Positions 40,965 through 43,342 of a DNA stretch of 64,000 nt are shown here, in pieces (positions within the stretch are counted from its first letter, which is position 1; the number at the start of each line of letters is the position of its first letter). The notes under the pieces were generated by a model that ran no database searches, was not told the DNA's origin, and was given only the letters and a program-made list of their open reading frames with translations. Made by a program: the position numbers and the translations under genes. Source of the stretch: Myxococcota bacterium (GTDB taxonomy: Bacteria > Myxococcota_A > Polyangia > Fen-1088); the NCBI GenBank assembly GCA_025934105.1, contig JAICYS010000002.1:2239-66238 (forward strand). The letters are read 5' to 3'.

Positions 40965-43342
40965 GCATGTTGAGTCCAGAGTTGGAGACCGCGATCCGGC
41001 GCGCCCTCGACGACGCCACCGACCGCGGCCACGAGTTTTCGGGGCTGGAGCATCTGTTGCTCGCCCTTTTGGCCGACGACAAGACGGCCGAGGTCATCAA
41101 GCAGTGCGGCGGCTCGCTCGGGCGCCTCGACAAGAAGCTGGAAGAGTTCCTGGACACGCAGATCAAGCCGCTGCCCGAGGACGAGCGCGAGCGCGCGCAG
41201 CCGACGCTGGCCTTCGCGCGCGTCGTGCAGCGCGCCGTGAACCACGTGCTCGGCGCCGGCAAACAACAGGCGAACGGCCCGAACGTCCTGGTGGCGCTGT
41301 TCTCCGAGCCGGAGTCGCACGCCGTCGCCTTCCTGAAGGAAGAGGGGATCTCGCGGCTGGACGTGGTCAGCTACATCTCGCACGGCATCAGCAAGCTGCT
41401 GCCCGCCAAGACCGGCGTGCCGGGGCAGGGTGGCCCCGCGCCCGACGAGGACGCCGACGAGGTGCCGGCGGATCCGCTGGCGCAGTTCGCCGTGAACCTG
41501 AACGAACGGGCCCGGGCCGGCGAGATCGACCCGCTCATCGGGCGGCAGACGCAGCTCGAGCGGGCGCTTCACGTGCTGGCGCGGCGGCGCAAGAACAATC
41601 CGCTGTTCGTGGGCGACGCGGGTGTCGGCAAGACCGCCATCGTCGAGGGGCTGGCCCGCCGGATCGAGCTGGGCGAGGCGCCCCCCGCGCTGGCGGGCGC
41701 GACGATCTACGCGCTGGACATGGGGGCCATGGTGGCGGGGACCCGCTACCGGGGCGACTTCGAAGAGCGATTCAAGGCCGTGCTGAAGGCGCTGGGCGAA
41801 AAGGAGAACGCCATCGTCTTCATCGACGAGCTGCACACGATCGTCGGGGCAGGCGCCGCGTCGGGCGGCGCCATGGACGCGTCGAACCTGATCAAGCCGG
41901 CGCTGGCGAACGGCAAGCTTCGCTGCATCGGCACCACGACGCACAAGGAATACCGCAGCTACATCGAGAAGGACCGCGCGCTGGCGCGGCGTTTCCAGGC
42001 GATCGAGGTCGAGGAGCCCTCGATCGAGGACACCATCAAGGTGCTGACCGGGCTGCGCGAGCGTTACGAAGAATTCCACGGCGTCGCCTACACGCCCAAG
42101 GCGCTGCGCGCCGCGGCGGAGCTGTCGGCGCGCTACCTCAACGACCGGCGGCTGCCCGACAAGGCCATCGATCTCATCGACGAGGCCGGTGCCGCCGCCA
42201 AGCTGAAGAAGACCCGCATCAAGGGGTCGAGGCGGCAGGTCCGCAGCCGCGACATCGAGACGGTGGTCGCGACCATGGCCCGCATTCCGCCCCGCCGCGT
42301 CGAGGCGGACGACCGCGAGCGGCTGGGCAACCTGGAGGGCGAGCTGAAGGCCAAGATCTTCGGCCAGAACCAGGCGGTCGAACGGGTCGCGCAGGCCATC
42401 AAGATGAACCGGGCGGGCCTGGGGCTGCCCAATCGGCCCATCGGCAGCTTCGTGTTCGCCGGGCCCACCGGCGTCGGCAAGACCGAGCTGGCCAAGACGC
42501 TGGCGGAGTTCCTGTTCGGCGACGAGGACAGCCTGATCCAGCTGGACATGAGCGAGTACTCCGAGAAGCACACGGTCTCGCGGCTGTTCGGGTCGCCTCC
42601 CGGCTACGTCGGCTACGAGGAGGGCGGTCAGCTCACCGAGAAGGTGCGTCGCAAGCCGTTCTCCGTCGTGCTCTTCGACGAGGTCGAGAAGGCTCACCCC
42701 GACATCTTCAACTCGCTGTTGCAGATCCTCGAGGACGGCCGGCTCACCGACTCCCAGGGCCGGGTGGTCGACTTCAAGAACACCGTCATCATCATGACGA
42801 CCAACCTCGGCACGCGGGACATCGCCAAGGGCGTCTCGCTCGGGTTCGCCTCGGGCGGTGACGTGCACTCGAGCTACGAGAAGATGAAGAACAAGGTCAA
42901 CGACGAGCTCAAGCAGCACTTCCGGCCGGAGTTCCTCAACCGCGTGGACGACACGATCGTCTTCCCGCAGCTGACGCAGGACGAGATCGTCGCGATCGTC
43001 GACCTGATGATCGCCAAGCTCGACCTGCGGCTCAAGGACAAGGACATGGGCATCGAGCTCACGCCCTCGGCCAAGCAGCTGCTCGCCAAGCGGGGCTACG
43101 ACCCGGTGCTCGGCGCCCGTCCGCTGCGTCGGGCGATCCAGCGGGACATCGAGGACGTGCTGTCCGAGAAGATCCTCTACGGCGAGGTCGCGACCGGCGA
43201 GATCGTCCTCGTCGGCACCGAGGGCGAGGGCAAGTCCGCGTCGTTCACCTTCAAGGGCACGCCGCACACCCACGCGCCGGACTCGCTGCCGGTCGAGGCG
43301 GCCGGCACCACGTCGGGGTCCACCGCCACCGGCACGGAGTGA
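40961..43342 (+). CDS. clpA: Hybrid AAA+ unfoldase ORF: ClpA-type N-domain/D1/D1-D2 junction joined to an actinobacterial ClpC1-type D2 and C-terminal tail (probable assembly chimera)
   Basis: ORF 40961..43342 (793 aa, ATGA overlap with the clpS stop). The N-terminus is ClpA-like ([16 protein letters not shown]...[13 protein letters not shown]). There is no ClpC-type M-domain between D1 and D2, and AIKMNRAGL is ClpA-like. From [19 protein letters not shown] onwards the sequence is ClpC1-like ([68 protein letters not shown]...[15 protein letters not shown]). Confidence 0.85.

Follow-up and report, generated by a model that had tools for sequence, protein, structure and literature searches.

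An in-frame ClpA/ClpC hybrid on a Myxococcota contig, very probably a chimeric assembly of Polyangia and actinobacterial DNA

Contig JAICYS010000002.1 belongs to an assembly attributed to a Myxococcota bacterium (GCA_025934105.1), and the 64,000-nt stretch of it analysed here (hereafter the window) carries one uninterrupted open reading frame (ORF) that begins as the clpA gene of a member of the Polyangia (Myxococcota) and ends as the clpC1 gene of an actinobacterium. The sequence evidence argues very strongly that the window is a chimeric contig in which two phyla have been joined by a misassembly through a shared conserved stretch. The hybrid ClpA/ClpC protein is almost certainly an error to be flagged, not new biology or a real feature of either organism, and no function should be attached to it. 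A first-pass annotation, made from the sequence alone, had already placed a taxonomic seam within 42410-42500 of the window, and the crossover that we mapped falls inside that range. The coordinates of the features discussed below are collected in Table 1.

The best homologues of the two halves of the hybrid are found in different phyla and not in the same lineage. In a collection of 5.8 billion protein clusters, the N part showed 93-96% identity to ClpA from metagenome-assembled genomes (MAGs) named 'Polyangia bacterium' by NCBI, and its only 100% match was the window's own product (P0001), a singleton from one contig of 77,607 bp. The C part reached 85-88% at best, with ClpC fragments of Terrabacter, Oryzihumus, Ornithinimicrobium, Dermatophilaceae and other Actinomycetota. 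Along the protein, the identity to the Polyangia ClpA P0002 was 96.6% over amino acids (aa) 1-498 (100% over aa 428-498), 100% over aa 499-512 and 43.2% over aa 513-793, and the identity to the ClpC fragments P0123 and P0126 was ~36.5% over aa 428-498, 100% over aa 499-512 and ~87% over aa 513-793. Each parent family drops to about 37-44% amino acid identity across the seam, and the last portion (aa 513-793) is ~87.5% identical to ClpC of Oryzihumus/Terrabacter (Intrasporangiaceae) versus 43% to the ClpA of Polyangia.

A search against PDB chains, with the halves cut at the coordinates of the first-pass annotation (first 483 aa and last 310 aa), bore out its reading of a ClpA-like N-domain and of a C-terminal part of ClpC1 identity ending in a Thr/Ser-rich tail, which is present. 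The N-terminal 483 aa matched E. coli ClpA best (522 bits, versus 316 for M. tuberculosis ClpC1), and the C-terminal 310 aa matched ClpC1-type chains best (434-504 bits, versus 252 for ClpA). Among the NCBIfam models, the whole hybrid scored 959.3 bits on the ClpA equivalog model TIGR02639, under its cut-off of 993.15, as would be expected if roughly a third of its sequence came from outside that family, and 873.6 bits on NF008263, under its cut-off of 1350. The other ClpA marks that had been noted also stand: the motif AIKMNRAGL lies at aa 479-487, clpS sits directly upstream and overlaps the hybrid ORF by ATGA (ATG at 40961 and TGA at 40962-40964, as read from the sequence), and the M-domain/UVR insert is lacking, the UVR motif PF02151 being absent from the Pfam list of P0001, although many ClpC fragments among those retrieved carry it. 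The clpS gene has the same position and the same length (118 aa) in the Polyangia loci L001 and L017. Conversely, the hybrid does not qualify as a ClpC1, which would have a ClpC-type N-domain and D1 plus the M-domain/UVR, its aa 428-498 being only 37% identical to ClpC. All the AAA+ motifs are intact in this ORF.

The seam was mapped by aligning the DNA of window positions 42361-42600 with the clpA of two Polyangia loci (L001 and L002) and with the clpC of Oryzihumus (L003). The Polyangia-diagnostic bases end at 42453 (GTG, Val498) and the actinobacterial-diagnostic bases begin at 42497-42498 (ACG, Thr513, and not CAG, Gln). The intervening stretch, TTCGCCGGGCCCACCGGCGTCGGCAAGACCGAGCTGGCCAAG, encodes 14 aa of the D2 Walker A motif, and at the protein level it is identical in both parent families. 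A shared stretch at the D2 Walker A had thus been correctly proposed, but its size of ~30 nt was not, as no diagnostic base occurs over 43 nt. Within this interval, exact identity among the relatives available, themselves only ~88% identical to the parents, extends over 18 nt. When nucleotide identity was compared in bins of 50-150 nt, L001 was at 88-95% before the interval, 95% inside and 54-77% after it (45% over the C-terminal tail), and L003 was at 53-68%, 91% and 82-97%, respectively. The join is contiguous and free of N runs. Scans of the whole window (1-64000) gave no tRNA gene and no Rfam family at the gathering threshold, and hence no integration-site-type feature near the junction.

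Several public actinobacterial ClpC fragments (P0127, P0182, P0154, P0168, P0177, P0201, P0163 and P0152) start at most ~12 aa from the D2 Walker A, which means that their contigs end there and which would fit a stretch that gives assemblers trouble. The idea of this motif as a hot-spot for contig breaks was nevertheless rejected and is kept as an anecdote only, since fragment starts show no clear excess at this motif over other positions (~10 of 120 public ClpC fragments within ~12 aa).

Gene order changes lineage at the same point. To the left of the junction, the window from 4178 onwards is collinear by blastn (72-88% nucleotide identity) with Polyangia/Myxococcales MAG loci L001, L002, L004-L011, L013 and L016-L018, in the order lnt, RpoH-like sigma factor, cytochrome b-c fusion, thiG, nrdR, riboflavin operon, nusB, queG, TMEM175-like, clpS and clpA. 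The side that the first-pass annotation called deltaproteobacterial can now be assigned more precisely to the Myxococcota, class Polyangia. Its lnt, cytochrome b-c fusion and RpoH-like sigma factor were recovered (the latter with rpoH_proteo as best NCBIfam model, below the cut-off), but the AgmX/PglI label given to the ORF at 80-2590 was not, since that ORF has no family match. When the window was compared by blastn with all the fetched loci, no Polyangia/Myxococcales locus aligned beyond the clp gene. In three independent Polyangia assemblies (a 93-kb JGI contig, a 268-kb MAG contig and a 51-kb NCBI MAG contig), the genes that come after clpA are MFS/Nuc_H_symport, FemAB-like and a hypothetical one of 145/146 aa, with two extra genes directly after clpA, ahead of the MFS/Nuc_H_symport gene, in L002, and with a nucleoside transporter next after the 145/146-aa gene in L017 and L018. 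These native clpA-downstream genes have no match anywhere in the window.

To the right of the junction, 42449-64000 is collinear, with some insertions, with a contig end (L003) of Oryzihumus sp. GCA_054310765.1, and the order clpC, LCP, acetyltransferase, ABC transporter, mutY-like, disA and radA is common to both. Since this contig ends 325 nt before the junction, the comparison of the native upstream part of clpC1 is limited to that length. The right block holds the 3′ end of clpC1, PAP2, LCP, an ECF sigma factor, a mycothiol-S-transferase, a HisKA_3 kinase, an ABC transporter, GntP, a mutY-like gene, disA, a sedolisin and radA. The first-pass gene list for this side is confirmed for LCP, DUF664, the MutY-like protein, DisA, RadA and the ECF sigma factor, with two refinements: PF04978 (formerly DUF664) is the mycothiol-S-transferase, and the sigma factor belongs to the TIGR02960 family, its match to SigJ being weak. 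Mycothiol chemistry and the neighbourhood of clpC1 with mutY, disA and radA are actinobacterial features. No locus of either lineage matches across the junction except through the homology of clpA and clpC.

The composition of the DNA switches too, inside a single ORF, at the junction and without a gradient. In a principal component analysis of canonical tetranucleotide frequencies in 4-kb chunks, the first component (44% of the variance) was negative in all ten left chunks and strongly positive in all five right chunks, and the ratio of between-block to within-block distance, calculated over all possible split points, peaked at 42476; the tetranucleotide comparison of the two sides proposed in the first-pass annotation therefore places the best split within the crossover interval. 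A 5-mer Markov classifier was trained on 1-37000 versus 48001-64000 and applied to the held-out middle in 1-kb windows: the log-odds went from -40 at 41501-42500 to +48 at 42501-43500, with every window negative before the junction and positive after it. In a separate cross-validation of this classifier, also in 1-kb windows, 24/24 left and 13/13 right windows were placed on the correct side. G+C content and GC skew gave no usable step at the junction.

We also searched for the hybrid elsewhere. A degenerate DNA pattern combining, with their proper spacing, KMNRAGL (ClpA-specific), the Walker A and TLAEFLFG(D/E)E (ClpC-specific) matched once in the window, which served as positive control, and had no match in 185,579 GTDB species genomes and none in the JGI metagenome contigs. 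At the protein level, 338 retrieved Clp homologues spanning both sides of the junction were classed: 114 were ClpA-like (high on the left only), 208 ClpC-like (right only) and 15 close on neither side, and P0001 alone was close on both sides. The exact lineage-specific 39-mer just left of the junction, with which we sought an intact clpA from the same Polyangia population, had no match in the JGI metagenome contigs. Look-ups by exact protein sequence gave no entry for the hybrid, for ClpS or for the LCP protein. A further search centred on the junction favours short fragments and omitted even P0001, which makes it weak as negative evidence; its top match (P0241, 83% identity) turned out to be an ordinary ClpC fragment with AIRRTRAGLKDPKRPGGSFIF ahead of the Walker A.

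A 789-aa Polyangia 'ClpA' (P0009), close to the hybrid in length, was for that reason considered as a possible second hybrid and was rejected, since its alignment shows a normal clpA that is frameshifted in D2. The gene lies at L017:10001-12370 (Polyangia MAG contig_28045, 268 kb) and runs out of frame after '...HPDLFNLLL' up to 789 aa, so that the frameshift points either to an indel introduced by sequencing or assembly or to a pseudogene.

Taxonomy, synteny, the lost native neighbours, the composition step, a junction lying in a stretch conserved in both families and the uniqueness of the hybrid all point in the same direction. We propose that the assembler fused two unrelated genomes co-occurring in one metagenome, one a Polyangia genome read through ...queG-TMEM175-clpS-clpA and the other an Intrasporangiaceae-like actinobacterial genome read through clpC1-PAP2-LCP-...-mutY-disA-radA. 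As clpA and clpC1 are homologous, the true parents could share an identical run of as many as 43 nt at the D2 Walker A; the two paths would merge at such a run in a de Bruijn or overlap graph, and the exit may then have been taken on the wrong branch. Since the run has one and the same frame in the two genes, the outcome would be an uninterrupted but fictitious 793-aa ORF of the type 'ClpA-N/D1 + ClpC1-D2', and the real organisms would be expected to carry an ordinary clpA and an ordinary clpC1, respectively. The homology of clpA and clpC, and their common register, explain why the join stays in frame and gives a plausible-looking protein. Chimeric joins between species are a common and documented kind of error in metagenome assemblies; they have been attributed to inter-genome k-mers that link the assembly graphs of different genomes (review PMC7299287), and 'inter-species translocation' is reported to be the most frequent misassembly type in the CAMI benchmark assemblies (metaMIC preprint, 10.1101/2021.06.22.449514).

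Four points weigh against a misassembly of this kind. The artefact is deduced from the assembled sequence and not from reads (coverage, pairs or long reads). The join is perfectly in frame and the ORF intact, and homologous recombination would yield the same result. The fetched relatives are exactly identical over only 18 nt of the 43-nt interval, so that an overlap between the parents of the length of a usual assembler k-mer has to be assumed. Finally, G+C is alike in both blocks (~0.70-0.72), and the simplest composition check does not separate them on its own.

In regards to other explanations, the artefact could have arisen at a step other than a wrong traversal of the graph, such as a chimeric long read, a chimera from multiple displacement amplification or the polymerase chain reaction serving as backbone, or the overlap-based merging or scaffolding of two true contigs that ended in the Walker A region. 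The outcome would be the same as under graph mis-traversal, the sequence alone does not reveal at which step the join was made, and the contigs of the ClpC fragments listed above, apart from P0154, end near the Walker A, which makes overlapping contig ends plausible. Nothing specific speaks against such a step, although no clear excess of fragment starts was seen at this motif, and we regard it as very improbable. It is in any case a technical sub-variant of the artefact and not a biological alternative.

The biological alternative would be a genuine inter-phylum recombinant, in which a Polyangia (or actinobacterial) genome gained at least 21 kb of foreign chromosome at a 43-nt microhomology and so acquired a real, possibly functional hybrid unfoldase. 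Even though the ORF is in frame and uninterrupted with all its AAA+ motifs intact, and even though the junction sits where homologous pairing is possible, we consider this extremely unlikely. Rather than an island, the foreign block is a piece of ordinary core chromosome (radA, disA, mutY-like and LCP) in its native order, its switch in composition is step-like with no amelioration, and, unlike the foreign segment of a natural mosaic, which would have recipient genome on both sides, the actinobacterial sequence takes up all 21.5 kb between the junction and the window's end with no return to Polyangia sequence. The event would have destroyed the recipient's clpA and removed the conserved genes downstream of it, and no second case was seen in the GTDB genomes, the JGI metagenomes or the 338 homologues. 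It would also need recombination on 43 nt flanked by DNA of 55-65% identity, and a shared stretch of this kind suits RecA-type recombination very poorly. A natural ClpA-N/D1::ClpC1-D2 chimera that arose when at least 21 kb were recently replaced across phyla, still docks on ClpP and is served by ClpS is likewise extremely unlikely. A binning error alone, which the first-pass annotation had named beside an assembly chimera, is ruled out, as binning cannot make a contiguous sequence and no run of N interrupts the join; the error thus lies in the assembly of the contig.

The misassembly that we favour resembles an inter-species translocation in that unrelated segments are joined at a short shared sequence and that taxonomy, synteny and k-mer composition switch together. 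It differs from the described translocations in the shared sequence, which is here not an rRNA, a transposase or a stretch from close strains, but the Walker A of paralogous AAA+ genes across phyla, and in that the join keeps the reading frame and so mimics a novel hybrid protein. With ClpA (TIGR02639) the hybrid shares the N-domain, D1, the D1-D2 linker without an M-domain and the upstream clpS with its ATGA overlap, but its residues 513-793 are not ClpA-like (43% identity). With actinobacterial ClpC1 it shares the D2 module, which extends from just past the Walker A through the LGF loop region and the tail up to the C-terminus, as well as the clpC1 neighbourhood downstream, but it is without the ClpC N-domain, D1 and M-domain/UVR, and no actinobacterial sequence is found upstream of 42454.

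The main value of this case lies in quality control, a public contig of 77.6 kb and its 793-aa protein being very probably a composite of two phyla. The contig should be split at 42454-42496 and P0001 treated as spurious; left unflagged, the contig contaminates its MAG, may pass for a massive inter-phylum transfer or a new Clp architecture, and seeds a false family member. More generally, conserved P-loop stretches of paralogous AAA+ genes can behave as inter-genome 'repeats' in metagenome assembly. Checks at the ORF level miss such joins because the reading frame is preserved, and taxonomy, synteny and k-mer composition taken side by side do detect them. Were the join real, it would represent a remarkable inter-phylum recombination and would speak for modularity between the D1 and D2 rings of Clp unfoldases.

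Table 1. Coordinates of the two blocks, the hybrid ORF, its parts and the adjacent clpS in the window.
Feature	Position	Strand	Basis or remark
Left block, Polyangia (Myxococcota) segment	4178-42453	.	Collinear blastn, composition, Pfam/NCBIfam
clpS, adaptor of ClpA, 118 aa	40608-40964	+	NCBIfam ClpS models, E=2e-34
Hybrid ORF, 793 aa	40961-43342	+	
5′ part of Polyangia clpA: N-domain, D1, D2 start (aa 1-498)	40961-42453	+	aa/nt identity, PDB match
Crossover interval, 43 nt, TTCGCCGGGCCCACCGGCGTCGGCAAGACCGAGCTGGCCAAG	42454-42496	+	No diagnostic base within; flanked by diagnostic bases on both sides
3′ part of actinobacterial clpC1: D2 remainder, LGF loop, D2-small domain, Thr/Ser-rich tail (aa 513-793)	42497-43342	+	aa/nt identity, PDB matches
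Right block, Actinomycetota (Intrasporangiaceae-like) segment	42497-64000	.	Collinearity with L003, Pfam/NCBIfam, composition

Both blocks contain portions that their relatives lack. In the left block, ~14 kb (12650-26700) is not found in the otherwise collinear loci L004, L005, L007, L009, L013 and L016. Its G+C is lower (0.67-0.69), its composition is still Polyangia-like, and it encodes a saccharopine-dehydrogenase-like protein, a 720-aa amine-oxidase-like protein, a polyprenyl synthetase and a 1066-aa zinc-ribbon/adenylate-cyclase/AAA_16 protein; this portion probably represents a variable region specific to the lineage. No related locus aligned with 1-4177, which is assigned to the left block by composition only, and the 836-aa ORF within it (80-2590, + strand), without a Pfam or NCBIfam match, has a very high G+C at first codon positions (0.87). 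In the right block, three portions are without counterpart in L003: 43400-45100, where PAP2 and a small membrane protein separate clpC1 from LCP; 46400-51000, with the ECF sigma factor, the mycothiol-S-transferase, the HisKA_3 kinase and a putative response regulator; and 54400-59000, with GntP and an 818-aa protein lacking a family match.

Some of the retrieved ClpC-type entries carry misleading names. PDB 8xon (8xon_S) and P0262 are both called 'NDP-hexose 4-ketoreductase', and P0185, an actinobacterial ClpC fragment, is named 'inosine-5-monophosphate dehydrogenase [Platysternon megacephalum]', a ClpC fragment in a turtle genome record that is likely contamination.

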